Of a stretch of DNA of 64,000 nt, positions 2,184 through 57,232 are shown piece after piece; the first letter of the stretch is position 1, and each line of letters opens with the position of its first letter. The notes beneath the pieces were generated by a model. That model did not search any database. It was given only the letters and a program-made list of their open reading frames with translations, and had not been told where the DNA came from. The stretch is taken from NCBI RefSeq assembly GCF_056746865.1, contig NZ_CM163382.1. One strand, written 5' to 3'. The translations under genes and the position numbers were made by a program.

Positions 2184-2843
2184 TTATTTTGCGGCGCGTG
2201 CCGCAGCGCGTTTGTGGCGAATAAATTCGAAAACACCTGGCAATATTGAAACAAAAATAATGCCAACAATCATCAGTTTAAGGTTGCTCTGAATGAAGGG
2301 GAGCGTTCCGAAGAAATAACCCGCGTAGGTAAAAATCAGTACCCATAGCAACGCGCCGATGACGTTAAAAGCGGCGAAATGACGATACGACATGTGGCCC
2401 ATTCCCGCAACGAACGGCGCGAACGTTCTGACGATCGGCACAAAACGGGCGAGAATAATCGTTTTGCCGCCATGTTTCTCATAAAACTGATGAGTCTTAT
2501 CAAGATAACTGCGACGAAAGATTTTCGAATCCGGATTACTGAACAGTTTGTCACCAAATAACCGTCCAATGGTGTAGTTCACCGCGTCACCCACAATCGC
2601 GGCGATCAGCATCAGCACCACCATCATATGGACGTTGAGATCGTTGGTTTCCAGTGATGCCAACGCACCGGCAACAAACAGCAATGAATCACCCGGTAAA
2701 AACGGCGTTACCACCAGACCGGTTTCACAGAACAAAATTAAGAACAAAATGGCATAAACCCAGACGCCATACTCCGCGACCAGTTCTGCCAGATGCACGT
2801 CAATGTGCAGGATAAAATCGATGAGGAAATAAATCAGGTCCAT
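2184..2843 (-). CDS. dedA: DedA-family inner membrane protein
   Basis: 219-aa hydrophobic [29 protein letters not shown], position between accD and truA as in E. coli. Confidence 0.88.
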
Positions 2844-2925
2844 ATTAGCCTATGCCTTGTACTCGTCATCTTTCAGGCTGTAACTACGTTGGCTACAGCC
2901 TGAAATGTTCCGAGCATTATTCTTG

Positions 2926-3738
2926 TTAGTCCGCCAGAAATAGCGGGCCCATTGGCGGTTTTGGAAGATCATACCGGTCAGGGTAATCCACCGCGACCAG
3001 ATACAGCCCTTCCGCTTTTGCCGTTGCTGCCGCCAGCGTTCTGTCCTTTGCCGCCAGCAACTCTGCTATCCAGCTCTCCGGCTGGTTGTGGGCACCGACT
3101 TCCATCAGGCTGCCGACAATATTCCTGACCATATGATGTACAAAGGCATTCGCTTTGATATCTACCACCACATAAGGACCGTGACGCGTGACATTAATAT
3201 GCATAACGTTGCGCCACGGGGTTCGGGACTGGCACTGCACCGCACGGAACGAGGTGAAATCATTCTCGCCCAGCAAGCATTGCGCAGCCCGATGCATCCG
3301 TTCAGCGTCCAGCGGTTCGTAAAAATGGGTTACCCCTTTACTCAGTACCGCCGGGCGCAGCCGATGATTGTAGATGATGTAGCGATAACGGCGAGCCGTG
3401 GCGCTAAATCGGGCATGAAAATCATCAGGTACAGCTTTAACCCAACGCACGGCGATGTCACCAGGTAAATTCGCATTTACGCCCAACGTCCACGCAGCGT
3501 CTTTGCGCTGCGCGGTCGTTTCGAAATGCACAACCTGCCCGGTGCCGTGTACACCTGCGTCAGTACGCCCGGCGCAGAAGACGGTGATCGGTTCGTTCGC
3601 CACCTGGGAGAGCGCCTTTTCCAGCTTCTCCTGCACACTGCGGACTTCGTTCTGCCGTTGCCAGCCGTAATACTTACTGCCGTCGTACTCAATGCCCAGC
3701 GCAATTTTATAAACTGGCGGTTGTTGCTGGTCGGACAT
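2926..3738 (-). CDS. truA: tRNA pseudouridine(38-40) synthase
   Basis: 270-aa [32 protein letters not shown], classic TruA N-terminus; start overlaps usg stop. Confidence 0.93.
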
Positions 3739-4816: not shown

Positions 4817-5953
4817 TTAACGTGCCGGATGATGAACGGCGTTAAAACCCAGTTTACACAGCAATGATGCCGCGCTGGCGTCATCACAAATTACATACAG
4901 AGATGACCATTCACGGCGCTCAAGATAGTTTTTGCGCAGCTTATCGAACTCACCCGGTATTCCGGCGACTTTACGCAGCGGTGCGTCATCGCGGCGCACA
5001 TCATACACCAAATGCACCAGCCTTTTCAGCGTCGGTTGATCGAGCGGGCCATGCAGCGTAATGCGGCCAAACTCTGGCGCGGGCAGCAACGTATCCAGCG
5101 CAACGTGTTGTTCATGCCCAATAAACTTGCTATAAGCTTCAAACACTTGCGTAGTACCGCGTGCTTTACCTTCCAGGGTATAGCCTGCGATATGCGGCGT
5201 GCCGATATCCACTTTTTTCAGCAATTCCACGTTGAGTTCCGGTTCGCCTTCCCAGACATCCAGCACTACGCTTAACTTCTGGCCTTCGTTCAGACAGGTC
5301 AATAGGGCAGTATTATCGACGACTGCGCCACGGCAGGCGTTAATCAGAATCGCTCCTGGTTTCAGGCTACGGATCAGTTTTTCATCCGCCAGATGCAGCG
5401 TTTTGTACGGCCCGTCTTTGAAGAGTGGCGTATGGAAAGTCAGAATATCCGCATGCTGAACTAATTCATCCAGCGAGCGGAAATCCCCCTCATCCCCACG
5501 GTCGGCGCGAGGCGGATCGCAAAGCAAGGTTGTAATCCCTAACGCTTCCAGTCGCGCCTGTAAACGGCGACCAACGTTACCAACGCCCACGATCCCCACT
5601 GTACGGTCGTGCAGTGAAAATCCATCGCGTTCGGCAAGCATCAGCAGTGAGGAGAAAACATATTCCACCACCGCAATCGCATTACAGCCTGGTGCCGCGG
5701 AAAAACCAATTCCCGCCTGCTTTAACCACGCTTCATCGACATGGTCGGTCCCCGCGGTGGCAGTGCCAACAAATTTAATGGGTTTTCCTCCCAGCAAAGA
5801 TTCATTCACTTTCGTGACCGAACGCACCATCAGCGCATCCGCGTCTGCCAGTTGAGCCACGGGGATTGGACGCCCGGGAACCGCGGTCACCTCACCCAAA
5901 CGGCTAAATAAGTCGCGGGCATAAGGCATATTTTCATCAACAAGGATTTTCAC
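4817..5953 (-). CDS. pdxB: Erythronate-4-phosphate dehydrogenase
   Basis: 378-aa [25 protein letters not shown] with D-2-hydroxyacid dehydrogenase fold motifs (GIVGVGNVG). Confidence 0.92.
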
Positions 5954-36080: not shown

Positions 36081-36521
36081 GATACCCTTCTAACAATATC
36101 TACCTTCACCCCGTAAAAGATGGGTTTGGCAGCACACTTGCCCTATATCTACTCATTTTTACTGCAACAGGTTGAAATCTCAGCACTGTCAGAAAGCGCT
36201 GATGACTAAACAGCCCTGGGCCGGGCGATGTAACCATCATACAGAATCCTGATAGCGAAATATGGCGTGACTCGATACTTCACTCTGCAATGCGTTCCTT
36301 GATGAATTCGCAGGCCCGTGATACACGGGACAAGTCGCTGAATGACGACAATGTCCTGGAAATCAGCGAACCGCGTATCCGGAGTACATTTGAGCGACTG
36401 TACCAGAACATGAATGAGGCGTTTGGATTAGGTGATTATTAGTTGGGCTAAGCATTTTTGTATTATTATTTTCCGGTTGAGGGATATGGAGATATCGACA
36501 ACAACCGGAAAAAGTTTACGT

Positions 36522-37769
36522 CTATATTGCTGAAGGTACAGGCGTTTCCATAACTATTTGCTCGCGTTTTTTACTCAGGAAGAAAATGCCAAATAGCAAC
36601 ATCAGGCAGACAATACCCGAAATTGCGAAGAAAACTGTCTGGTAGCCTGCGTGGTCAAAGAGTATCCCAGTCGGCGTTGAAAGCAGCACAATCCCAAGCG
36701 AACTGGCAATTTGAAAACCAATCAGAAAGATCGTCGACGACAGGCGCTTATCAAAGTTTGCCACGCTGTATTTGAAGACGGATATGACACAAAGTGGAAC
36801 CTCAATGGCATGTAACAGCTTCACTAATGAAATAATCCAGGGGTTAACGAACAACGCGCAGGAAAGGATACGCAACGCCATAATCACAACACCGATAAGT
36901 AATGCATTTTTTGGCCCTACCCGATTCACAAAGAAAGGAATAATCGCCATGCACAGCGCTTCGAGTACCACCTGGAATGAGTTGAGATAACCATACAGGC
37001 GCGTTCCTACATCGTGTGATTCGAATAAACCTGCATAAAAGACAGGAAAGAGTTGTTGATCAAAAATGTTATAGAAAGACCACGTCCCCACAATAAATAT
37101 GACAAAAACCCAGAAGTTTCGATCCTTGAAAACTGCGATAAAATCCTCTTTTTTTACCCCTCCCGCATCCGCCGCTACACACTGGTGACCCTTATCTTTA
37201 AAACGCATGTTGATCATCATAAATACAGCGCCAAATAGCGAGACCAGCCAGAAGTTGATATGGGGACTGATACTAAAAAATATGCCGGCAAAGAACGCGC
37301 CAATAGCATAGCCAAAAGATCCCCAGGCGCGCGCTGTTCCATATTCGAAATGAAAATTTCGCGCCATTTTTTCAGTGAAGCTGTCAAGCAAACCACATCC
37401 CGCCAGATACCCCAGGCCAAAAAAGAGCGCCCCCAGAATTAGACCTACAGAAAAATTGCTTTGCAGTAACGGTTCATAAACGTAAATCATAAACGGTCCG
37501 GTCAAGACCAGAATGAAACTCATACACCAGATGAGCGGTTTCTTCAGACCGAGTTTATCCTGAACGATGCCGTAGAACATCATAAATAGAATGCTGGTAA
37601 ACTGGTTGACCGAATAAAGTGTACCTAATTCCGTCCCTGTTAATCCTAGATGTCCTTTCAGCCAAATAGCGTATAACGACCACCACAGCGACCAGGAAAT
37701 AAAAAAGAGAAATGAGTAACTGGATGCAAAACGATAGTACGCATTTCTGAATGGAATATTCAGTGCCAT
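36522..37769 (-). CDS. cscB: Sucrose:H+ symporter (oligosaccharide:H+ symporter family, MFS) CscB
   Basis: 415-aa 12-TM ORF MALNIPFRNAYYRFASSYSFLFFISWSLWWSLYAIWLKGHLGL, LacY-like sucrose permease. Confidence 0.88.
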   Translation of the reverse strand: MALNIPFRNAYYRFASSYSFLFFISWSLWWSLYAIWLKGHLGLTGTELGTLYSVNQFTSILFMMFYGIVQDKLGLKKPLIWCMSFILVLTGPFMIYVYEPLLQSNFSVGLILGALFFGLGYLAGCGLLDSFTEKMARNFHFEYGTARAWGSFGYAIGAFFAGIFFSISPHINFWLVSLFGAVFMMINMRFKDKGHQCVAADAGGVKKEDFIAVFKDRNFWVFVIFIVGTWSFYNIFDQQLFPVFYAGLFESHDVGTRLYGYLNSFQVVLEALCMAIIPFFVNRVGPKNALLIGVVIMALRILSCALFVNPWIISLVKLLHAIEVPLCVISVFKYSVANFDKRLSSTIFLIGFQIASSLGIVLLSTPTGILFDHAGYQTVFFAISGIVCLMLLFGIFFLSKKREQIVMETPVPSAI

Positions 37770-37830
37770 AATTACCTGCCCGTCGTTAAAAAATTCATGT
37801 CCTATTTAGAGATAAGAGCGGCCTCGCCGT

Positions 37831-38754
37831 TTACTTCTCACTTTCCAGTTCTTGTCGACATGGCAGCGCTGTCATTGCCCCTTTCGCTGTTACTGCAAGC
37901 GCTCCGCAACGTTGAGCGAGATCGATAATTCGTCGCATTTCTCTCTCATCTGTAGATAATCCCGAAGAGGACAGACCTGTGAGTAACCCGGCAACGAACG
38001 CATCTCCCGCCCCAGTGCTATCGACACAATTCACAGACATTCCAGCAAAATGGTGGACTTGTCCTCGATAACAGACCACCACCCCTTCTGCACCTTTAGT
38101 CACCAACAGCATGGCGATCTCATAATCTTTTGCCAGGGCGCATATATCCCGATCGTTCTGTGTTTTTCCACTGATAAGTCGCCATTCTTCTTCCGAGAGC
38201 TTGACGACATCCGCCAGTTGTAGCGCCTGCCGCAAACACAAGCGGAGCAAATGCTCGTCTTGCCATAGATCTTCACGAATATTGGGATCGAAGCTGACAA
38301 AACCTCCGGCATGCCGGATCGCCGTCATCGCAGTAAATGCGCTGGTACGCGAAGGCTCGGCAGACAACGCAATTGAACAGAGATGTAACCATTCGCCATG
38401 TCGCCAGCAGGGCAAGTCTGTCGTCTCTAAAAAAAGATCGGCACTGGGGCGGACCATAAACGTAAATGAACGTTCTCCTTGATCGTTCAGATCGACAAGC
38501 ACCGTGGATGTCCGGTGCCATTCATCTTGCTTCAGATACGTGATATCGACACCCTCAGTTAGCAGCGTTCTTTGCATTAACGCACCAAAAGGATCATCAC
38601 CGACCCGACCTATAAACCCACTTGTTCCGCCTAATCTGGCGATTCCCACCGCAACGTTAGCTGGCGCGCCGCCAGGACAAGGCAGTAGCCGCCCGTCTGA
38701 TTCTGGCAAGAGATCTACGACCGCATCCCCTAAAACCCATACTTTGGCTGACAT
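37831..38754 (-). CDS. cscK: Fructokinase CscK (ribokinase/pfkB family)
   Basis: 307-aa ORF MSAKVWVLGDAVVDLLPE with pfkB signature (DSTGAGDAFVAGLL). Confidence 0.9.
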   Translation of the reverse strand: MSAKVWVLGDAVVDLLPESDGRLLPCPGGAPANVAVGIARLGGTSGFIGRVGDDPFGALMQRTLLTEGVDITYLKQDEWHRTSTVLVDLNDQGERSFTFMVRPSADLFLETTDLPCWRHGEWLHLCSIALSAEPSRTSAFTAMTAIRHAGGFVSFDPNIREDLWQDEHLLRLCLRQALQLADVVKLSEEEWRLISGKTQNDRDICALAKDYEIAMLLVTKGAEGVVVCYRGQVHHFAGMSVNCVDSTGAGDAFVAGLLTGLSSSGLSTDEREMRRIIDLAQRCGALAVTAKGAMTALPCRQELESEK

Positions 38755-38858
38755 TTTTTTCCCTTAAATTCATCTGACTTACGCATAGTGATAAACCTCT
38801 TTTTCGCAAAATCGTCATGGATTTACTAAAACATGCATATTCGATCACAAAACATCAT

Positions 38859-38936
38859 AGTTAACGTTAACATTTGTGATATTCATCGCATTTATGAAAG
38901 TAAGTGACTTTATTTTTATAAAAGTTAACGTTAACA
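38859..38936. promoter_or_regulatory. Divergent cscK/cscA promoter region with two identical palindromic 14-mers (candidate CscR operators)
   Basis: AGTTAACGTTAACA occurs at 38859-38872 and 38923-38936; each is itself palindromic (GTTAAC x2); LacI-family repressors bind such dyads. Confidence 0.5.
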
Positions 38937-38960
38937 ATTCACCAAATTTGCTTAACCAGG

Positions 38961-40403
38961 ATGATTAAAATGACGCAATCTCGATTGCATGCGGCGCAAA
39001 ACGCACTAGCAAAACTTCACGAGCGCCGAGGTAACACTTTCTATCCCCATTTTCACCTCGCGCCTCCTGCCGGGTGGATGAACGATCCAAACGGCCTGAT
39101 CTGGTTTAACGATCGTTATCACGCGTTTTATCAACATCACCCGATGAGCGAACACTGGGGGCCAATGCACTGGGGACATGCCACCAGCGACGATATGATC
39201 CACTGGCAGCATGAGCCTATTGCGCTAGCGCCAGGAGACGAGAATGACAAAGACGGATGTTTTTCAGGTAGTGCTGTCGATGACAATGGTGTCCTCTCAC
39301 TTATCTACACCGGACACGTCTGGCTCGATAGTGAAGGTAATGACGATGCAATTCGCGAAGTACAATGTCTGGCTACCAGTCGGGATGGTATTCATTTCGA
39401 GAAACAGGGTGTGATCCTCACTCCACCAGAAGGAATCATGCACTTCCGCGATCCTAAAGTGTGGCGTGAAGCCGACACATGGTGGATGGTAGTCGGGGCG
39501 AAAGACCCAGGCAACACGGGGCAGATCCTGCTTTATCGCGGCAGTTCATTGCGTGAATGGACTTTCGATCGCGTACTGGCCCACGCTGATGCGGGTGAAA
39601 GCTATATGTGGGAATGTCCGGACTTTTTCAGCCTTGGCGATCAGCATTATCTGATGTTTTCCCCGCAGGGAATGAATGCCGAGGGATACAGTTATCGAAA
39701 TCGCTTTCAAAGTGGCGTAATACCCGGAATGTGGTCGCCAGGACGACTTTTTGCACAATCCGGGCATTTTACTGAACTTGATAACGGGCATGACTTTTAT
39801 GCACCACAAAGCTTTGTAGCGAAGGATGGTCGGCGTATTGTTATCGGCTGGATGGATATGTGGGAATCGCCAATGCCCTCAAAACGTGAAGGCTGGGCAG
39901 GCTGCATGACGCTGGCGCGCGAGCTATCAGAGAGCAATGGCAAACTCCTACAACGCCCGGTACACGAAGCTGAGTCGTTACGCCAGCAGCATCAATCTAT
40001 CTCTCCCCGCACAATCAGCAATAAATATGTTTTGCAGGAAAACGCGCAAGCAGTTGAGATTCAGTTGCAGTGGGAGCTGAAGAACAGTGATGCCGAACAT
40101 TACGGATTACAACTCGGCACAGGAATGCGGCTGTATATTGATAACCAATCTGAGCGACTTGTTTTGTGGCGATATTACCCACACGAGAATTTAGACGGCT
40201 ACCGTAGTATTCCCCTCCCGCAGGGTGACACGCTCGCCCTAAGGATATTTATCGATACATCATCCGTGGAAGTATTTATTAACGACGGGGAAACGGTGAT
40301 GAGTAGCCGAATCTATCCGCAGCCAGAAGAACGGGAACTGTCGCTCTATGCCTCCCACGGAGTGGCTGTGCTGCAACATGGAGCACTCTGGCAACTGGGT
40401 TAA
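38961..40403 (+). CDS. cscA: Sucrose-6-phosphate hydrolase / invertase CscA (GH32)
   Basis: 480-aa ORF with GH32 motifs (WMNDPNG, RDP, EC); alternative start at ATG 38970 (MTQSRLHAA) gives 477 aa. Confidence 0.9.
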   Translation: MIKMTQSRLHAAQNALAKLHERRGNTFYPHFHLAPPAGWMNDPNGLIWFNDRYHAFYQHHPMSEHWGPMHWGHATSDDMIHWQHEPIALAPGDENDKDGCFSGSAVDDNGVLSLIYTGHVWLDSEGNDDAIREVQCLATSRDGIHFEKQGVILTPPEGIMHFRDPKVWREADTWWMVVGAKDPGNTGQILLYRGSSLREWTFDRVLAHADAGESYMWECPDFFSLGDQHYLMFSPQGMNAEGYSYRNRFQSGVIPGMWSPGRLFAQSGHFTELDNGHDFYAPQSFVAKDGRRIVIGWMDMWESPMPSKREGWAGCMTLARELSESNGKLLQRPVHEAESLRQQHQSISPRTISNKYVLQENAQAVEIQLQWELKNSDAEHYGLQLGTGMRLYIDNQSERLVLWRYYPHENLDGYRSIPLPQGDTLALRIFIDTSSVEVFINDGETVMSSRIYPQPEERELSLYASHGVAVLQHGALWQLG

Positions 40404-40410
40404 CATAATA

Positions 40411-41406
40411 TCAGGTGGAACAACGGATCAACAGCGGGCAAGGGATCCGCGTCACTCTTCCCCCTTCACGACCTTCAATAATATGCAATGCAGCTTCCCG
40501 CCCGATAATGTCATGTGGAAGCTGAATTGTGGTCAGCGGCGGTAAAAACAGATGCCCGACGCCAACCAGATTATCAAAGCCCATTACGGCGACATCCTGC
40601 GGGATACGTACCCCCTTCGCCAGGAGAACCTGATAAGCGACAAAGGCTGCGCGATCGTTACCACATATCAGAACATCAAAATCTGGTTTGCCAGATTTGA
40701 AGTGGTCATTGAGTAAACTTGCGAGATCGGTGTAGTGATCATCACCTGTTGCCATGTGAAATTGTTTCACCTCAGCCAGATCTCGTCCAGCATCACGCCA
40801 GGCCTGCTCAAATCCCTGCCGACGATACCCTGTTGCCAACGCACTTTCCGGTAGCCAGAAGCATAACGGTTGACGATAGCCCGCCGCGAGCAAATGCTGT
40901 GTTGATTCATATTGTGCAGTGTAATCATCAGGGATATAACTGGGTAACGCTGGGTCATCCGCAACACAGTTCGCCAATACAATATTTTCACCATACAGAG
41001 ACTCAGGCAGCGTGATATGTCGCAGCCCCATTGTAGTATAGATAATGCCATCCGGACGGTGGGCAAGCAGCTGACGTGCCGCGCGGGCAGCGTCATCTTC
41101 AGAAAAAATATTGATTAAAAAACTATTCCAGCCGAACTCGCTGGCGGTTTGCTCAATGGCAAGCAGAATATCAACAGAGAAAGGAGTGGTAGCCGTGTCC
41201 TGCGCCAGCACGGCGAGAGTCGACGGCTTACGTCCTTGAGCGCGCATCTTACGGGCGGAAAGATCAGGAACATAATTCAGGGTCTGGATTGCCTGCAATA
41301 CGCGGTTACGCGTTGCAGGACGCACAGATTCTGCATTATGCATCACCCGGGAGACTGTCATCATCGACACTCCCGCCAGGCGTGCGACATCCTTTAATGA
41401 AGCCAT
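40411..41406 (-). CDS. cscR: LacI-family sucrose operon repressor CscR
   Basis: ORF 40411..41604 contains MASLKDVARLAGVSMMTVSRVMHN (LacI HTH); start trimmed to ATG 41406 (331 aa). Confidence 0.88.
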   Translation of the reverse strand: MASLKDVARLAGVSMMTVSRVMHNAESVRPATRNRVLQAIQTLNYVPDLSARKMRAQGRKPSTLAVLAQDTATTPFSVDILLAIEQTASEFGWNSFLINIFSEDDAARAARQLLAHRPDGIIYTTMGLRHITLPESLYGENIVLANCVADDPALPSYIPDDYTAQYESTQHLLAAGYRQPLCFWLPESALATGYRRQGFEQAWRDAGRDLAEVKQFHMATGDDHYTDLASLLNDHFKSGKPDFDVLICGNDRAAFVAYQVLLAKGVRIPQDVAVMGFDNLVGVGHLFLPPLTTIQLPHDIIGREAALHIIEGREGGRVTRIPCPLLIRCST

Positions 41407-41636
41407 ACCCAAGCCGTTTGCCGTAAAACGGGCACTGTAGCAGAAACAGACGTCACTGGCGAGATCCAACGATATTCTCGACGCCCTATCACCCGACACG
41501 GCAATACAATAAAAAATAACAATAATTCCCGGACAATTGTACCCAATTCCGCCTCTGTTCTCGCCAACGAGTAACCATGTAGGCAAGTAGGTAAAACATG
41601 CCAACTGGCATCGCCAATCTGGAGAAGAAAATATAA

Positions 41637-41867
41637 ATATGGATCATTGTGCTGGCGCTGTATCCCGACATCAGCCCGGAAATTTTTACGATTGATATCG
41701 GTTCAAGTGCAATTGGCTGCACGATCGTTACGGACTCGCTTTTCTGGCTGGTGAAGCAATATTGCGGCGCTACGCTCAATGAAACATTTAAATACTATAC
41801 GACAGCGACATTTATCGCTTCAGTCGTCGCTCTGGCGGGCACATTCCTGCTGTCATTTATCATCTAA
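41637..41867 (+). pseudogene. dsdX: 3-prime remnant of D-serine permease gene dsdX (GntP family), truncated by the csc insertion
   Basis: Frame open from 41637 with no upstream coding continuation; hydrophobic C-terminal sequence ...[49 protein letters not shown]... matches my recollection of the DsdX C-terminus; directly upstream of dsdA. Confidence 0.65.
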
Positions 41868-41884
41868 GCGCAAAGAGACGTACT

Positions 41885-43216
41885 ATGGAAAACGCTAAAA
41901 TGAATTCGCTCATCGCCCAGTATCCGTTGGTAAAGGATCTGGTTGCTCTTCAAGAAACCACCTGGTTTAATCCTGGCACGACCTCATTGGCTGAAGGTTT
42001 ACCTTATGTTGGCCTGACCGAACAGGATGTTCAGGACGCCCATGCGCGCTTATCCCGTTTTGCACCCTATCTGGCAAAAGCATTTCCTGAAACTGCTGCT
42101 ACTGGGGGGATTATTGAATCAGAACTGGTTGCCATTCCGGCTATGCAAAAACGGCTGGAAAAGGAATATCAACAACCGATCAGCGGGCAACTGCTACTGA
42201 AAAAAGATAGCCATTTGCCCATTTCCGGCTCCATAAAAGCACGCGGCGGGATTTATGAAGTCCTGGCACATGCAGAAAAACTGGCTCTGGAAGCGGGGTT
42301 GCTGACGCTTGAAGATGACTACAGCAAACTGCTTTCTCCGGAGTTTAAACAGTTCTTTAGCCAATACAGCATTGCTGTGGGCTCAACCGGAAATCTGGGG
42401 TTATCAATCGGCATTATGAGCGCCCGCATTGGCTTTAAGGTGACAGTACATATGTCTGCTGATGCCCGGGCATGGAAAAAAGCGAAACTGCGCAGCCATG
42501 GCGTTACGGTCGTGGAATATGAGCAAGATTATGGTGTTGCAGTCGAGGAAGGACGTAAAGCAGCGCAGTCTGACCCGAACTGTTTCTTTATTGATGACGA
42601 GAATTCCCGCACGTTGTTCCTTGGGTATTCCGTCGCAGGCCAGCGTCTTAAAGCGCAATTTGCCGAGCAAGGTCGTATCGTCGATGCTGATAACCCTCTG
42701 TTTGTCTATCTGCCGTGTGGTGTTGGCGGTGGTCCTGGTGGCGTCGCATTCGGACTTAAACTGGCGTTTGGCGATCATGTTCACTGCTTTTTTGCCGAAC
42801 CAACGCACTCCCCTTGTATGTTGTTAGGCGTCCATACTGGATTACACGATCAGATTTCTGTTCAGGATATTGGTATCGACAACCTTACCGCAGCGGATGG
42901 CCTTGCAGTTGGTCGCGCATCAGGCTTTGTCGGGCGGGCAATGGAGCGTCTACTGGATGGCTTCTATACCCTTAGCGATCAAACCATGTATGACATGCTT
43001 GGCTGGCTGGCGCAGGAAGAAGGCATTCGTCTTGAACCTTCGGCACTGGCGGGTATGGCCGGGCCTCAGCGCGTGTGCGCATCAGTAAGTTACCAACAGA
43101 TGCACGGTTTCAGCGCAGAACAACTGCGTAATGCCACTCATCTGGTGTGGGCGACGGGAGGTGGAATGGTGCCGGAAGAAGAGATGGAGCAATATCTGGC
43201 AAAAGGCCGTTCATAA
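41885..43216 (+). CDS. dsdA: D-serine dehydratase (ammonia-lyase)
   Basis: 443-aa [34 protein letters not shown] with PLP-lysine region (SGSIKARGG). Confidence 0.95.
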
Positions 43217-43321: not shown

Positions 43322-44860
43322 TCACCCAACGCCTTTCGCTGTAAACGGCGGTTTCGCAAACCAAACCAATACCGTAAGTAAGATAAAAGCAATAGCCGCC
43401 ATACGGAAAATCTCATTTGCAGAAATTGAAAGTGACTGCTGAGTTATTTCATTATTAATTTCATTAAGAACCCCTGAAAGCGAACCATAGTATTTATCCA
43501 TAATTTGTGACGATGAATTAAACACGGGGTTAAATTGATCGATTGTTGCTGTCAACTGACTATGGTGTAATGATTCTCGGCGTCCCCACAGCGTCATTGT
43601 CAACGACGTACCAACTGATCCTGACAAGGTACGAAAAAAATTACTCATACTCGAGGCATTGGCAAATTTATTATCTGGCAAACCTGAAAACGAAATCGTT
43701 GTTAAGGGTAAAAAGAAACAGGCGACGGCGAATCCCTGAAAAAACTGTGGCAAAATGATGCCTGTAAAATCAATCGTTGGCATAAATGTCACAGAACGCC
43801 AGTAATAGCAAACCGCATACATTAAAAAACTAAATGTCACCAACAACCGCATATCAATTTTGTTGCCATAACGTCCTATCAAAGGTGATATTAATAGCGG
43901 CATGATGCCGATGGGCGCATAGGCAAGTCCGGCCCATATCGCATTATACCCCATCGTTTCCTGGAGTAACTGCGGCATAAGGACTATCGCCCCAGAGTAA
44001 AATAAATACGCGCATGTGATACTCACAATACCAATGGTGAAATTACGGGACTTAAACAAACTGAGATCAAGAATCGGGTTCTCTGAGGTCGACTCCCAAA
44101 TGACTAAAGAAATCAGAGAAATAACTGACACTACTGTTAGTATTATTATTGTACTCGAGTTGAACCAATCCAGGTCGCGCCCTTTATCAAGCATTATCTG
44201 CAAGCCACCAACACCGAGCACTAACAGGGTCAGTCCTGGTAGATTCATTTTGACCGGTGAAGTCTCAGTTTCTCTTCCTTTAAGTAAGGTTAAGCATAAT
44301 GTCAGAACGATAATCCCCATAGGGACATTGATTAAAAATATCCAACCCCAGCTAAAGTTATCGCAAATATAGCCGCCCAATATCGGCCCACATATCGGAG
44401 CGATAATTACGGTCATTGACCATAATGCCAAAGCAAATGTTCTTTTTTCTGGCGGATAATTCCTTAATAATAAACTCTGTGACAGTGGAATTAACGGCCC
44501 CGCCATTAACCCCTGAACGACTCTAAAAAATATCAGCACATCAAGATTGGTCGATAGGCTACACATTAAGGAAGACAGCGAAAAAAAAGTGACTGAAAGT
44601 AAAAATAATCTTAATTCGCCTATTCTTTGTGCCAGCCTGCCGGTAACAGGGATCGCAATGGCATTTGCTACGCCAAACGAAGTGATAACCCAGGTGCCTT
44701 CGTCTGTTGATGCTCCCAGAAAGCCAGATATTGTCGGTATTGCGACGTTAGAAATAGTGGAATCCAACATTTGCATAAACGTCGCTAATGACAATGCAAT
44801 AGTGACGCACCATAACGTCCCACCGGTTAATGGTGCCGGAGTTGATTTAGTGATTGCCAT
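43322..44860 (-). CDS. emrY: Multidrug efflux MFS transporter EmrY (EmrB paralog)
   Basis: 512-aa 14-TM ORF; overlaps emrK stop. Confidence 0.9.
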   Translation of the reverse strand: MAITKSTPAPLTGGTLWCVTIALSLATFMQMLDSTISNVAIPTISGFLGASTDEGTWVITSFGVANAIAIPVTGRLAQRIGELRLFLLSVTFFSLSSLMCSLSTNLDVLIFFRVVQGLMAGPLIPLSQSLLLRNYPPEKRTFALALWSMTVIIAPICGPILGGYICDNFSWGWIFLINVPMGIIVLTLCLTLLKGRETETSPVKMNLPGLTLLVLGVGGLQIMLDKGRDLDWFNSSTIIILTVVSVISLISLVIWESTSENPILDLSLFKSRNFTIGIVSITCAYLFYSGAIVLMPQLLQETMGYNAIWAGLAYAPIGIMPLLISPLIGRYGNKIDMRLLVTFSFLMYAVCYYWRSVTFMPTIDFTGIILPQFFQGFAVACFFLPLTTISFSGLPDNKFANASSMSNFFRTLSGSVGTSLTMTLWGRRESLHHSQLTATIDQFNPVFNSSSQIMDKYYGSLSGVLNEINNEITQQSLSISANEIFRMAAIAFILLTVLVWFAKPPFTAKGVG

Positions 44861-46023
44861 TAAAGTTGTCCATTATGCGAAATAATGTTGCTAATTTCTT
44901 TTTCTATCGGACTGGTATCGATAACTAAAGCCTTACTGGTATAAGCAGGCATGGACGTCACGGTTGAAGCCAGATCGGGCATCTCGGCAATGTCTTCGTT
45001 CCTGGTATCAATAGTTGCAGTCATCGATAAACCAATGCGCAAGGGATGTTCCATGAGTTCTTTTGGATCAAGAGAAACTTCAACCGGGACACGCTGAACG
45101 ATTTTGATCCAGTTCCCTGTCGCATTTTGTGCAGGTAATAAGGAGAACGCATTGCCGGTTCCCATATTGATCCCTGTCACCCGACCATGAAACACAACAT
45201 TTTCACCATAGAGATCGCTGATAATATTGACCGATTGACCAATCCGTACATCCGTGAGTTGTGTTTCTTTAAAGTTGGCATTAACCCACATTTGACGTGC
45301 CGGTACAACAGCCATTAACGATTGTCCGGGACTCACTGTTTCGCCAACCTGAACGCTTCTCTGGGCAATATAGCCGGTAACAGGACTCTTAATATCCGTA
45401 CGTTTAAGCACTAACCAGGCTTCTTTGGTTGCATCCGCCGCTTCAACGACTTGTGGCTGACGGTTTAATGGTGTGTTCATTACTAAAGCTTTATTCGCTT
45501 TATAAGCCTGAATAGCAGCATTCAATGCCGCTTTGCTACTTATTAACGTATCTTTGGTATGCTCCAGCGTTTCTTTTGAAATAACCCCCTGCTTCGCTAA
45601 AGGTACACGACGGTTATAATCTTCTAAAGATTGTTGATACTGAATACGTGCTGAAGCGACTTCGGCACTGTATTGTTTATCCTGTAAGTACAGTTTATTC
45701 GTTTGCCGAACAATATTGGCCAGATTATTTTTAGCTTTATTGAGTGCGATAGTGGCATCAGTCTTATCCAGTGAGACTAAAATGTCACCCTGTCGAACGT
45801 AGTTCGTATCTTTATGATTAACGACAGTGACGCTGCCTGAAACTTGTGCAGAAATTGGATCTGCATTCCCCGTGACATAGGCGTCATCTGTACTAATCAT
45901 GTCTTCTAATTCCATTGACCAATAGGCATAGGCACCTGAAAACGCAATAAATAAAACTACCGCCAATAAAGAAAAGTATTTTCTTCTGTTAGAATGTTTT
46001 TTATTTGAATTAATCTGTTCCAC
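44860..46023 (-). CDS. emrK: Multidrug efflux membrane-fusion protein EmrK (EmrA paralog)
   Basis: 387-aa ORF MEQINSNKKHSNRRKYFSLLAVVLFIAFSG, HlyD-family. Confidence 0.9.
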   Translation of the reverse strand: MEQINSNKKHSNRRKYFSLLAVVLFIAFSGAYAYWSMELEDMISTDDAYVTGNADPISAQVSGSVTVVNHKDTNYVRQGDILVSLDKTDATIALNKAKNNLANIVRQTNKLYLQDKQYSAEVASARIQYQQSLEDYNRRVPLAKQGVISKETLEHTKDTLISSKAALNAAIQAYKANKALVMNTPLNRQPQVVEAADATKEAWLVLKRTDIKSPVTGYIAQRSVQVGETVSPGQSLMAVVPARQMWVNANFKETQLTDVRIGQSVNIISDLYGENVVFHGRVTGINMGTGNAFSLLPAQNATGNWIKIVQRVPVEVSLDPKELMEHPLRIGLSMTATIDTRNEDIAEMPDLASTVTSMPAYTSKALVIDTSPIEKEISNIISHNGQL

Positions 46024-46196
46024 TATTATCTCTCATTTCGCATAGATGAAATTTATGAATTGAATGAAAAGAGTATTCATTCTTCATATCAAACACAGTG
46101 CATGTGTTGCACATTATCCCAGGAACGTTGGAGGCCTAATTTAAATGAGGTGCAAAAGAAACAACAGAGGACTAAACCGTGGCTTTTGCAATACGA

Positions 46197-46213
46197 TTCT
46201 TACGCCTGTAGGA
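46197..46213. promoter_or_regulatory. EvgA-box-like inverted repeat in emrK-evgA divergent promoter
   Basis: TTCTTACGCCTGTAGGA: half-sites TTCTTAC / GTAGGAA-like, same architecture as the boxes at 56186 and 57216. Confidence 0.55.
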
Positions 46214-46438
46214 TTAGTGAGAAGACTTATAGTGCTAATGTGAAACTATAAATCATCGGTACAATCCCTGATTTTATTGTTGACATTTCATTTATGCCGA
46301 CTATTTATATGGTATACTTGTCGAATTATCTTAAAGGAAGCTCAAATTTTCTTATTTTTATTGAGAAAATGAGATGATGCCTTATGTCTGTATTACTACA
46401 GGGAGAAGGGAGATGCTTCATTGCAAAGGGAATAATCT

Positions 46439-47053
46439 ATGAACGCAATAATTATTGATGACCATCCTCTTGCTATCGCAGCAATTCGTAATTTATTGAT
46501 CAAAAACGATATTGAAATCTTAGCAGAGTTGACTGAAGGCGGAAGCGCCGTTCAGCGGGTGGAAACACTTAAGCCTGATATCGTCATCATTGATGTCGAT
46601 ATCCCCGGAGTTAACGGTATCCAGGTGTTAGAAACGCTAAGGAAGCGTCAATATAGCGGAATTATTATTATCGTCTCCGCTAAAAATGACCATTTTTACG
46701 GGAAACATTGTGCTGATGCTGGCGCTAATGGATTCGTGAGTAAAAAAGAAGGCATGAACAATATCATTGCGGCTATTGAAGCTGCAAAAAATGGCTACTG
46801 CTATTTCCCCTTCTCTCTCAACCGGTTTGTTGGAAGTTTAACGTCCGACCAGCAAAAACTCGACTCCTTATCGAAACAAGAAATTAGTGTCATGCGATAT
46901 ATTCTTGATGGCAAGGATAATAATGACATTGCTGAAAAAATGTTCATCAGCAACAAAACTGTCAGCACTTATAAAAGTCGCCTGATGGAAAAATTAGAAT
47001 GTAAATCACTGATGGATCTTTACACATTCGCACAACGTAACAAAATCGGCTAA
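46439..47053 (+). CDS. evgA: Response regulator EvgA (NarL/FixJ family)
   Basis: 204-aa ORF MNAIIIDDHPLAIAAIRNLL with receiver domain and C-terminal LuxR-type HTH. Confidence 0.95.
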   Translation: MNAIIIDDHPLAIAAIRNLLIKNDIEILAELTEGGSAVQRVETLKPDIVIIDVDIPGVNGIQVLETLRKRQYSGIIIIVSAKNDHFYGKHCADAGANGFVSKKEGMNNIIAAIEAAKNGYCYFPFSLNRFVGSLTSDQQKLDSLSKQEISVMRYILDGKDNNDIAEKMFISNKTVSTYKSRLMEKLECKSLMDLYTFAQRNKIG

Positions 47054-47057
47054 CCAC

Positions 47058-50000
47058 ATGAAGTTTTTACCCTATATTTTTCTTCTCTGTTGTGGTCTTT
47101 GGTCGACCATAAGTTTCGCAGACGAAGATTACATCGAATATCGTGGCATCAGTAGTAACAACCGTGTCACACTTGATCCACTACGTCTGAGCAACAAGGA
47201 ATTACGTTGGTTAGCGAGCAAGAAAAATCTTGTGATTGCAGTACACAAGTCCCAAACGGCTACGTTGTTGCATACCGATTCGCAGCAACGGGTTCGTGGT
47301 ATTAATGCTGATTATTTAAATCTGTTAAAAAGAGCGTTAAATATCAAATTAACACTCCGGGAATACGCCGATCATCAAAAAGCAATGGACGCGCTGGAAG
47401 AAGGTGAAGTCGATATAGTGTTATCACATTTAGTTGCTTCGCCGCCTCTTAATGATGACATTGCTGCAACCAAACCACTGATAATTACCTTTCCGGCGCT
47501 CGTCACCACCCTTCACGATTCAATGCGACCGCTTACCTCATCAAAACCAGTAAATATTGCTCGAGTAGCAAATTATCCCCCTGACGAGGTAATTCATCAA
47601 TCATTTCCAAAAGCAACAATTATCTCTTTTACAAATTTATATCAGGCATTAGCATCCGTCTCAGCCGGACAGAATGATTACTTTATTGGTAGTAACATCA
47701 TTACCAGCAGTATGATTTCCCGCTATTTCACTCACTCCTTAAATGTAGTGAAATATTATAACTCGCCGCGTCAATATAACTTTTTCTTAACCAGAAAAGA
47801 TTCAGTCGTTCTTAATGAAGTACTCAATCGGTTTGTTGATGCTTTAACAAATGAAGTTCGCTATGAAGTATCACAAAATTGGCTTGATACAGGAAACCTG
47901 GCCTTTCTGAACAAACCATTAGAACTGACTGAACATGAAAAACAGTGGATAAAGCAGCATCCCGATTTAAAGGTGCTGGAAAATCCTTACTCCCCTCCCT
48001 ATTCTATGACGGATGAAAATGGCTCGGTTCGGGGCGTTATGGGGGATATTCTTAATATTATTACCTTGCAAACAGGTTTAAATTTTTCTCCGATCACCGT
48101 TTCACACAATATCCATGCCGGAACACAGCTTAATCCCGGCGGATGGGATATATTACCTGGTGCTATTTATAGTGAAGATAGAGAAAATAATGTTTTATTT
48201 GCTGAAGCCTTCATAACAACGCCTTACGTTTTTGTCATGCAAAAAGCGCCTGACAGTGAACAAACATTAAAAAAAGGAATGAAAGTTGCCATTCCCTATT
48301 ATTATGAGCTTCATTCGCAATTAAAAGAGATGTATCCGGAGGTAGAGTGGATAAAAGTCGATAACGCCAGCGCTGCATTTCACAAGGTCAAGGAAGGTGA
48401 ACTTGATGCTCTGGTCGCGACACAGTTAAATTCGCGTTACATGATCGACCATTACTATCCTAATGAACTTTATCATTTTCTTATTCCCGGCGTTCAGAAT
48501 GCATCACTTTCGTTCGCTTTTCCTCGCGGAGAACCGGAACTTAAGGATATTATTAATAAAGCACTGAATGCAATTCCCCCAAGCGAAGTTCTGCGCCTGA
48601 CGGAAAAATGGATTAAAATGCCCAATGTGACCATTGACACATGGGATCTCTATAGCGAGCAGTTTTATATTGTTACGACATTATCCGTTTTATTAGTTGG
48701 CAGTAGCCTTTTATGGGGATTCTACCTGTTACGCTCAGTTCGTCGTCGTAAAGTCATTCAGGGTGATTTAGAAAACCAAATATCATTCCGGAAAGCACTC
48801 TCGACTCCTTACCGAATCCAACTTATGTCGTAAACTGGCAAGGTAATGTCATTAGTCACAATAGTGCATTTGAACATTATTTCACTGCTGATTACTACAA
48901 AAATGCAATGTTGCCATTAGAAAACAGTGAATCACCCTTTAAAGATGTTTTTTCTAATACGCATGAAGTCACAGCAGAGACGAAAGAAAATCGAACAATA
49001 TACACACAGGTATTTGAAATTGATAATGGCATCGAGAAAAGATGCATTAATCACTGGCATACATTATGCAATCTGCCAGCCAGCGATCATGCTGTTTATA
49101 TTTGTGGTTGGCAAGATATTACCGAGACGCGTGATTTAATTCATGCTCTCGAAGTAGAGAGAAATAAAGCGATCAATGCAACTGTCGCAAAAAGTCAGTT
49201 TCTGGCAACAATGAGTCACGAAATAAGAACACCAATAAGCTCCATTATGGGCTTCCTGGAACTTCTGTCGGGTTCTGGTCTTAGCAAGGAACAACGGGTG
49301 GAGGCGATTTCACTTGCCTACGCCACCGGACAATCACTCCTCGGCTTAATTGGTGAAATCCTTGATGTCGACAAAATTGAATCGGGTAACTATCAACTTC
49401 AACCACAATGGGTCGATATCCCTACTTTAGTCCAGAACACTTGTCACTCTTTCGGTGCGATTGCTGCAAGCAAATCCATCGCATTAAGTTGCAGCAGTAC
49501 GTTTCCTGAACATTACCTGGTTAAGATCGACCCTCAGGCGTTTAAGCAGGTCTTATCTAATTTACTGAGCAATGCTCTCAAATTTACCACCGAGGGGGCA
49601 GTGAAAATTACGACCTCCCTGGTTAACATTGATGACAACCACGCTGTAATCAAAATGACGATTATGGATTCTGGAAGTGGATTATCACAGGAAGAACAAC
49701 AACAACTGTTTAAACGCTATAGCCAAACAAGTGCAGGTCGTCAGCAAACAGGTTCTGGTTTAGGCTTAATGATCTGCAAAGAATTAATTAAAAACATGCA
49801 GGGTGATTTGTCATTAGAAAGTCATCCAGGCATAGGAACGACATTTACGATCACAATCCCGGTAGAAATTACCCAACAAGTGGCGACTGTCGAGGCAAAA
49901 GCAGAACAACCCATGACACTCCCTGAAAAGTTGAGCATATTAATCGCGGATGATCATCCGACCAACAGGCTATTACTCAAACGCCAGCTAAACCTATTAG

Positions 50001-50650
50001 GATATGATGTTGATGAAGCCACTGATGGTGTGCAAGCGCTACACAAAGTCAGTATGCAACATTATGATCTGCTTATTACTGACGTTAATATGCCGAATAT
50101 GGATGGTTTTGAGTTGACTCGCAAACTCCGTGAGCAAAATTCTTCCTTACCCATCTGGGGGCTTACAGCCAACGCACAGGCTAACGAACGTGAAAAAGGG
50201 TTAAATTGCGGCATGAACTTATGTTTGTTCAAACCGTTGACCCTGAATGTACTGAAAACACATTTAAGTCAGTTACACCAGGTTGCGCATATTGCACCTC
50301 AGTATCGCCACCTTGATATCGAGGCCCTGAAAAATAATACGGCGAACGATCTACAACTGATGCAGGAGATTCTCATGACTTTCCAGCATGAAACGCATAA
50401 AGATCTACCCGCTGCGTTTCATGCGTTAGAAGCTGGCGATAACAGAACTTTCCATCAGTGTATTCATCGCATCCACGGTGCGGCTAACATCCTGAATTTG
50501 CAAAAGTTGATTAATCTTAGCCATCAGTTAGAAATAACGCCCGTTTCAGATGACAGCAAGCCTGAAATTCTTAAGTTGCTGAACTCTGTTAAAGAACACA
50601 TTGCAGAGCTGGACCAGGAGATTGCTGTTTTCTGTCAACAAAATGACTAA
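47058..50650 (+). pseudogene. evgS: Hybrid sensor kinase evgS interrupted by a -1 frameshift (single G missing near 48803); reading frame split into 47058..48833 and 48803..50650
   Basis: First frame ends ...ISFRKALSTPYRIQLMS*; the +1 frame from 48803 reads DSLPNPTYVVNWQGNVISHNSAFEHYF... and continues through HisKA (ATMSHEIRTPISS), HATPase, receiver and HPt domains; 582 + 615 codons = 1197, the expected EvgS length. Confidence 0.75.
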
Positions 50651-57176: not shown

Positions 57177-57232
57177 ATCTTACAGTTGTAGTTATTATCG
57201 CAAGAAGTATTTTAGTCTTACAATTGTAGGAA
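57177..57232. promoter_or_regulatory. Two EvgA-box-like inverted repeats upstream of yfdX
   Basis: TCTTACAGTTGTAG (57177-57190) and TCTTACAATTGTAGGAA (57216-57232), 100-150 bp upstream of yfdX. Confidence 0.5.

Follow-up and report, generated by a model that had tools for sequence, protein, structure and literature searches.

The window analysed here, a stretch of 64,000 nucleotides, is part of an E. coli chromosome and carries the divergent emrKY and evgAS operons, encoding an efflux system and the EvgA/EvgS regulatory pair (Table 1). The emrK gene (minus strand, start at 46023) and evgA (plus strand, start at 46439) are separated by an intergenic region of 415 bp, inside which a putative EvgA box is located. 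Downstream of evgS, the ORFs corresponded to yfdE, yfdV, oxc, frc, yfdX and ypdI. Previous studies have shown that, by binding upstream of evgAS, EvgA controls this operon as well as the divergent emrKY (PMC5573083, PMC9496106); binding at the emrK-evgA region is attributed to Tanabe 1998 and Kato 2000, as these are cited in PMC5573083 and PMC9496106, the latter work being cited in PMC5706723 as well. Expression of emrK depends on EvgA (PMC6393483, PMC5706723), all the directly regulated genes carry an EvgA binding site upstream (PMC4283999) and EvgA-binding inverted repeats have been described upstream of yfdX and yfdWUVE (PMC3720670). The signal reaches EvgA through a phosphorelay that proceeds from H721 to D1009 and H1137 of EvgS and ends at D52 of EvgA (PMC4494823).

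Table 1. Genes, EvgA boxes and evgS lesion located in the window
Feature	Position	Strand	Basis or context
emrY, MFS efflux permease, 512 aa, intact	43322..44860	minus	ORF list and annotation
emrK, efflux adaptor, 387 aa, intact, EvgA-activated target	44860..46023	minus	ORF; identical annotated DNA in 118UI and NMBU-W13E19
EvgA box, TTCTTACG-CC-TGTAGGAT, 18-bp imperfect inverted repeat	46197..46214	.	Common to the divergent emrKY and evgAS promoters
evgL, small leader ORF (MLHCKGNNL*), intact, overlaps the evgA start codon	46413..46442	plus	K-12 annotation b4781 (L002 5730-5759) via alignment
evgA, response regulator (REC and GerE/LuxR helix-turn-helix), intact	46439..47053	plus	Pfam; DNA identical to that of the relatives' WP_000991370.1
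evgS 5′ fragment, 591 aa, two periplasmic SBP_bac_3 domains and membrane-proximal region	47058..48833	plus	ORF, Pfam
evgS 1-bp deletion site, GG to G in CTCGGACTC, codon 583	48802..48803	plus	Alignments
evgS 3′ ORF, 580 aa, HisKA, HATPase_c, receiver and HPt, restart at Met618	48908..50650	plus	ORF, Pfam
Perfect EvgA box TTCTTACAACTGTAAGAA	56186..56203	.	Some 250 bp before the start codon of frc (yfdW)
Weaker EvgA-box-like site ATCTTACAGTTGTAGTTA, three mismatches	57177..57194	.	Upstream of yfdX
EvgA box GTCTTACAATTGTAGGAA, one mismatch	57215..57232	.	yfdX-ypdI intergenic region

The preliminary description of this DNA had highlighted an EvgA-box-like dyad between emrK and evgA. Reading of the sequence confirmed that positions 46197-46213 are TTCTTACGCCTGTAGGA, and that the T at 46214 completes an 18-bp element centred at a distance of 182.5 bp from the start codon of emrK and of 233.5 bp from that of evgA. 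The motif recognized by EvgA is reportedly TTCYTACA-NN-TGTARGAA, an 18-bp sequence that is said to have been defined by Masuda and Church in 2003. A search of literature texts with the motif letters and the term 'EvgA box' did not find a paper stating this consensus, and the motif was validated indirectly, by means of positive controls at known targets (safA, ydeP, frc and yfdX from K-12). When the ydeO-safA-ydeP region of K-12 was scanned, the consensus gave three matches against 0.20 expected, two of which were located upstream of safA (one mismatch) and upstream of ydeP (two mismatches). The motif definition therefore holds, since it recovered these independent known targets. The window was then scanned with TTCYTACANNTGTARGAA, allowing up to three mismatches and using 100 shuffles as control. 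Four matches appeared where 0.58 were expected, a number that was reached in none of the 100 shuffles. The emrK/evgA box agreed with the consensus at 16 of the 18 positions, with two mismatches, and the three remaining matches were found upstream of frc and yfdX, which are known EvgA targets. As for the dyad, the consensus match stood while the palindrome turned out to be imperfect: the half-sites TTCTTACG and, on the bottom strand, ATCCTACA are equal at five of eight positions, and the box was not returned by an inverted-repeat search with a 6-nt seed. For these reasons, 'match to the EvgA consensus' describes the element more accurately than 'palindrome'.

Comparison with K-12 MG1655, which the preliminary description had proposed as the way to check the motif, revealed that the box is present at the aligned position of the known EvgA site and equal at all 18 bases. 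The window and K-12 also share the position of the operator, the flanking genes and the EvgA protein; they differ in two lineage-specific substitutions outside the box (in the window, G for A two bases to its left and G for A five bases to its right) and in the cognate kinase gene, which is frameshifted in the window. At the species level, the intergenic region was found with at least 95% identity in 5,392-5,398 of 5,426 complete E. coli genomes. Among six diverse E. coli sequences (the window, K-12, CFT073, E2348/69, 2009C-3554 and FDAARGOS_1304), 27 intergenic columns were variable and none of them fell inside the box, a comparison of low power given that about 1.2 variable sites would be expected there. 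Two diverged emrKY-evgAS loci, L005 and L006, taken from a species-representative collection, extended the comparison. L005, whose EvgA is 98% identical, carried a perfect box (TTCTTACACCTGTAGGAA) at the orthologous position, and L006, which is labelled Yersinia vastinensis and has an EvgA of 94% identity, carried a box with one mismatch (TTCTTACACGTGTAGGCA), again at the orthologous position. Over the eight sequences, 14 out of 18 box positions were invariant compared to 55% of the whole intergenic region, both half-sites were invariant in all of them, the two diverged loci included, and the box together with its left flank ranked among the three best-conserved 18-mer blocks of the region. 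Position 8 of the box is G in E. coli proper and A in the two diverged loci. Together with the published binding of EvgA to this region, these results indicate with high confidence that the element at 46197-46214 corresponds to the known EvgA operator of the emrKY/evgAS control region. This operator has already been described and represents ordinary EvgSA biology, unchanged with respect to K-12.

Additional features were observed around the box and in the compared loci. To its right, a second inverted repeat (GAAGACTTATAGT and ACTATAAATCATC, at 46221-46233 and 46245-46257, 85% complementary) presented cores, ATAGT and GAAACTATAA, that did not vary in any of the eight sequences of the alignment, L005 and L006 among them; this repeat may be the site of another regulator or a set of promoter elements. 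A simple promoter scan found no suitably placed sigma-70 consensus promoter in the intergenic region. The single match, on the minus strand (first hexamer at 46300, second ending at 46271), was below the shuffled expectation and does not account for the geometry of the box, because it lies upstream of it. Of six EvgA sites considered, several presented −10-like hexamers at a distance of some 57-62 nt from the centre of the box, a spacing hint that is too weak for assigning start sites. An Rfam scan of 45500-47200 produced no match. Regarding the diverged loci, L006 corresponds to NZ_CACVAF010000001.1, labelled Y. vastinensis IP38594, in which emrY-emrK and evgA-evgS are complete (L006 2911-10219) on a 590-kb contig assigned to a Yersinia species. 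According to the usual description, EvgSA occurs solely in E. coli and Shigella (PMC9496106), and this locus could reflect either horizontal transfer or a mislabelled genome. The converse of the window was found in E. coli NCTC10444 (NZ_LR134092, positions 2792-3680 of the extracted locus, L092), in which emrKY, along with 236 bp at the left end of the intergenic region, has given way to an IS1A and a fimbrial operon, so that the EvgA box is gone while evgA and evgS are intact.

We then characterized the evgS lesion. Alignment with K-12, 118UI and NMBU-W13E19 revealed that a single G has been lost around position 48803, at codon 583, changing CTCGGACTC into CTCGACTC. The translation of the frameshifted gene comprises 582 native residues followed by nine out-of-frame residues and a stop codon. 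In the original frame, translation could next begin at the ATG encoding Met618, from which an ORF remains open up to residue 1197. According to Pfam, the two SBP_bac_3 domains remain in the first fragment while HisKA, HATPase_c, the receiver and HPt remain in the second; the deletion thus leaves the periplasmic sensor and the membrane helix on one side and the cytoplasmic modules (PAS, kinase, receiver and HPt) on the other. The beginning of the PAS domain is missing from the Met618 fragment. No Shine-Dalgarno-like sequence precedes the ATG of this fragment, and for this reason the 3′ ORF is probably untranslated. Apart from the deletion, which is the sole difference, evgS is identical to the intact allele of 118UI. 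We found no signs of decay, either as further lesions in evgS or as altered cis elements of the regulon: the four EvgA boxes of the window (the emrK/evgA box, that of frc and the two of yfdX) are identical to those of K-12, and the window does not differ from the intact relatives in evgA, evgL, emrKY or the regulon genes further downstream.

The distribution of the lesion was examined in genome and protein collections. A 301-bp query spanning the deletion had no perfect match in any of the 5,426 complete E. coli genomes. The best matches were 99.7% identical and covered 302 bases of the record against 301 of the query, indicating that they carry the extra G. Similarly, an exact-protein look-up in a collection of around 15 billion proteins did not contain the 591-aa EvgS fragment. 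The 580-aa ORF was present in the same collection, and the contigs that encode it (L085-L090) were all wild type at the deletion site. In these contigs evgS was broken in other ways, namely by an IS1 insertion, by contig ends at IS termini or by an error-rich assembly. Specifically, L086 (GCA_964056295.1, 5278-5975) carries an IS1 just before Met618, and L087-L090 break at IS ends located no more than about 300 bp upstream of Met618, constituting independent disruptions of evgS. Hence, none of the genomes or contigs compared shared the lesion of the window.

The window was nearly identical to genomes of the ST69 lineage (118UI, NMBU-W13E19 and 'O15:H18 strain ST69'). Over 61,977 bases aligned with NMBU-W13E19 we counted three mismatches and three differences due to IS elements, in addition to the evgS indel. 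Two of these mismatches border an IS junction and probably reflect misalignment, and the evgS deletion was the only small indel in these ~62 kb. The divergence from this evgS-positive relative is thus about 5e-5 per site or less, which corresponds to fewer than 0.001 expected changes in an operator of 18 bp. From the sequence comparison we infer that the evgS lesion is recent. With at most three substitutions in ~62 kb since the split from a relative with intact evgS, retention of the operator is uninformative about selection or about alternative activation of EvgA.

IS movement rather than point mutation is the main difference between the window and NMBU-W13E19. The window contains an IS2-like insertion (IS3 family; ~18285-19610), in which an ORF at 18700-19605 encodes an rve integrase of 301 aa. 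NMBU-W13E19 lacks this insertion and instead carries an IS1 between smrB and prmB. The ypdA gene (61349-63758), encoding the LytS-type sensor kinase of YpdAB, is split by an IS200C at ~61940-62650, whose Y1 transposase ORF is on the minus strand (62048-62557); 5TMR-LYT remains in one half of the gene and GAF, His_kinase and HATPase in the other. The junction between ypdA and IS200C was found in no complete E. coli genome. The 64-kb window therefore contains two sensor-kinase genes, evgS and ypdA, with private lesions that part the sensor from the transmitter. Finally, a sucrose (csc) cluster is inserted beside tRNA-Arg (36500-41900), where dsdX persists as a 3′ remnant. The same arrangement occurs in ST69-like relatives, and 118UI has at this tRNA-Arg an extra integrase island that is absent from the window.

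Altogether, the explanation that we consider very likely is that a known EvgA operator, identical to that of K-12, stands beside a strain-private evgS deletion that is too recent for the site to have decayed. Dimer binding is usual for NarL/FixJ regulators, and phosphorylated EvgA, a protein of this type with a GerE helix-turn-helix, would bind the half-sites TTCTTAC and TGTAGGA, presumably as a dimer. Once bound, it would activate emrKY leftwards and regulate its own operon rightwards. The deletion at codon 583 would uncouple the periplasmic sensor and the membrane helix from the cytoplasmic modules and, as EvgS would be cut before its PAS domain, the phosphorelay would be left without membrane-anchored input. 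The evgA gene, emrKY, the operator and the boxes of frc and yfdX are all wild type in this strain, and the operator would be intact simply because essentially no evolutionary time has elapsed after the lesion. If the deletion is real, the strain would be expected to behave as EvgS-null: evgA would be expressed at its basal level, and neither acid nor K+ would induce emrKY, ydeP, safA-ydeO or frc. In such a strain, mild acid would trigger neither exponential-phase acid resistance nor EmrKY efflux. It would also add one more natural case of EvgS loss, and an annotation of the lesion would be useful to those who work with the isolate.

The preliminary description had read the same situation as an operator retained despite the frameshift, with regulon cis elements intact beside a broken kinase gene, and had derived from it either a recent loss of EvgS or an EvgA activated by another route, such as acetyl phosphate or cross-talk. 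The sequence as given bears out the frameshift (a 1-bp deletion leaving ORFs of 591 and 580 aa) and the intact boxes, and a recent loss fits both the absence of the deletion from the complete genomes and the near identity with the closest relative. However, an 18-bp site in which virtually no change is expected needs no reason for its retention, and the recency of the lesion fully explains the intact cis elements, so that no new question about EvgA activation arises. The frameshift itself could have been introduced in error during sequencing or assembly; EvgS would then be intact, with no pseudogene, EvgSA would be fully functional and the operator would be unremarkable. Single-base indels are the commonest kind of assembly error, this one is both a singleton among the genomes and contigs compared and the lone small indel relative to the nearest genome, and purifying selection acts on evgS in E. 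coli (dN/dS ~0.1; PMC5706723). On the other hand, the deletion affects a GG dinucleotide and not a long homopolymer, and the rest of the window is free of other small indels, indicating that the assembly is not error-prone. The same strain carries private lesions that are certainly real, IS200C in ypdA and the IS2-like insertion, and EvgS is known to have been naturally lost or impaired in strains O42, NA114 and MP1 (PMC4283999, PMC5706723), to which the IS insertions in evgS seen here can be added. We regard an error as rather unlikely, though by no means negligible.

Activation of EvgA by acetyl phosphate, by cross-talk from another kinase or by a constitutive Met618 fragment of EvgS, with the operator being kept by selection, appears very improbable. 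It is true that D52 of EvgA is phosphorylated in vitro by 40 mM acetyl phosphate (PMC4494823), that the cytoplasmic part of EvgS, when expressed on its own, shows constitutive activity (PMC5573083) and that the ORF encoding HisKA, HATPase, REC and HPt is still open from Met618. Nevertheless, the emrK transcript was not detected in a ΔevgS Shigella under inducing conditions (PMC6393483) and the acid induction of AR2 genes was lost upon evgS deletion (PMC5573083), results that leave the acetyl-phosphate and cross-talk routes proposed for this strain unsupported. In addition, retention of the box requires no selection at so small a divergence from the evgS-positive relative. An even slimmer chance is assigned to low-level translation of the Met618-1197 ORF as a soluble, signal-independent kinase that would keep the EvgA regulon, including emrKY, constitutively on. 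Such a fragment would represent a natural gain of function via frameshift, but it is made unlikely by the missing ribosome-binding site at the ATG at 48908 and by the truncation of its PAS domain, whose integrity affects the activity of the EvgS cytoplasmic part (PMC5573083, PMC4283999). Lastly, there is hardly any probability that the emrK/evgA motif resembles the consensus by chance and lacks a regulatory role. It has two mismatches to the consensus, one of them at the otherwise invariant A of position 8, and its palindrome is imperfect; yet consensus matches are enriched over shuffles, the motif falls exactly within the region reported to bind EvgA (PMC5573083, PMC9496106) and its half-sites are invariant at the orthologous position although the surrounding intergenic DNA has strongly diverged.

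The operator and the probable recent loss of EvgS beside it can be placed among related systems. The emrK/evgA box shares with the boxes of frc (yfdW), yfdX, safA-ydeO and ydeP the core TCTTAC-N4-TGTAG(G) upstream of EvgA-activated genes. Those boxes differ from it in having A at position 8 and from none to two mismatches (three at the weaker second yfdX site) and, unlike them, the emrK/evgA box serves two divergent operons. In the Bordetella BvgAS system, BvgA sites are located in the divergent fhaB-bvgAS control region, and avirulent-phase variants are known to arise through bvgS frameshifts. Both systems consist of an unorthodox kinase and a NarL-family regulator that controls its own operon and acts through inverted repeats located between divergent genes, whereas half-site sequence, signals and regulon are different. 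Phase variation at evgS was considered and rejected: compared to bvgS, the evgS lesion of the window, at its GG dinucleotide, has no homopolymer or repeat tract that would suggest it. EvgSA and BvgSA are homologous (PMC9496106, PMC5573083). Regarding natural EvgS variants, evgAS is deleted in strain O42, NA114 carries a 21-aa deletion in the PAS domain and MP1 and others have a pH-blind EvgS (PMC4283999, PMC5706723). The lesion of the window differs from these in being a 1-bp deletion at codon 583 found in no other genome, and it resembles them in that EvgS signalling is lost or altered at the level of the strain while the rest of the regulon is present.
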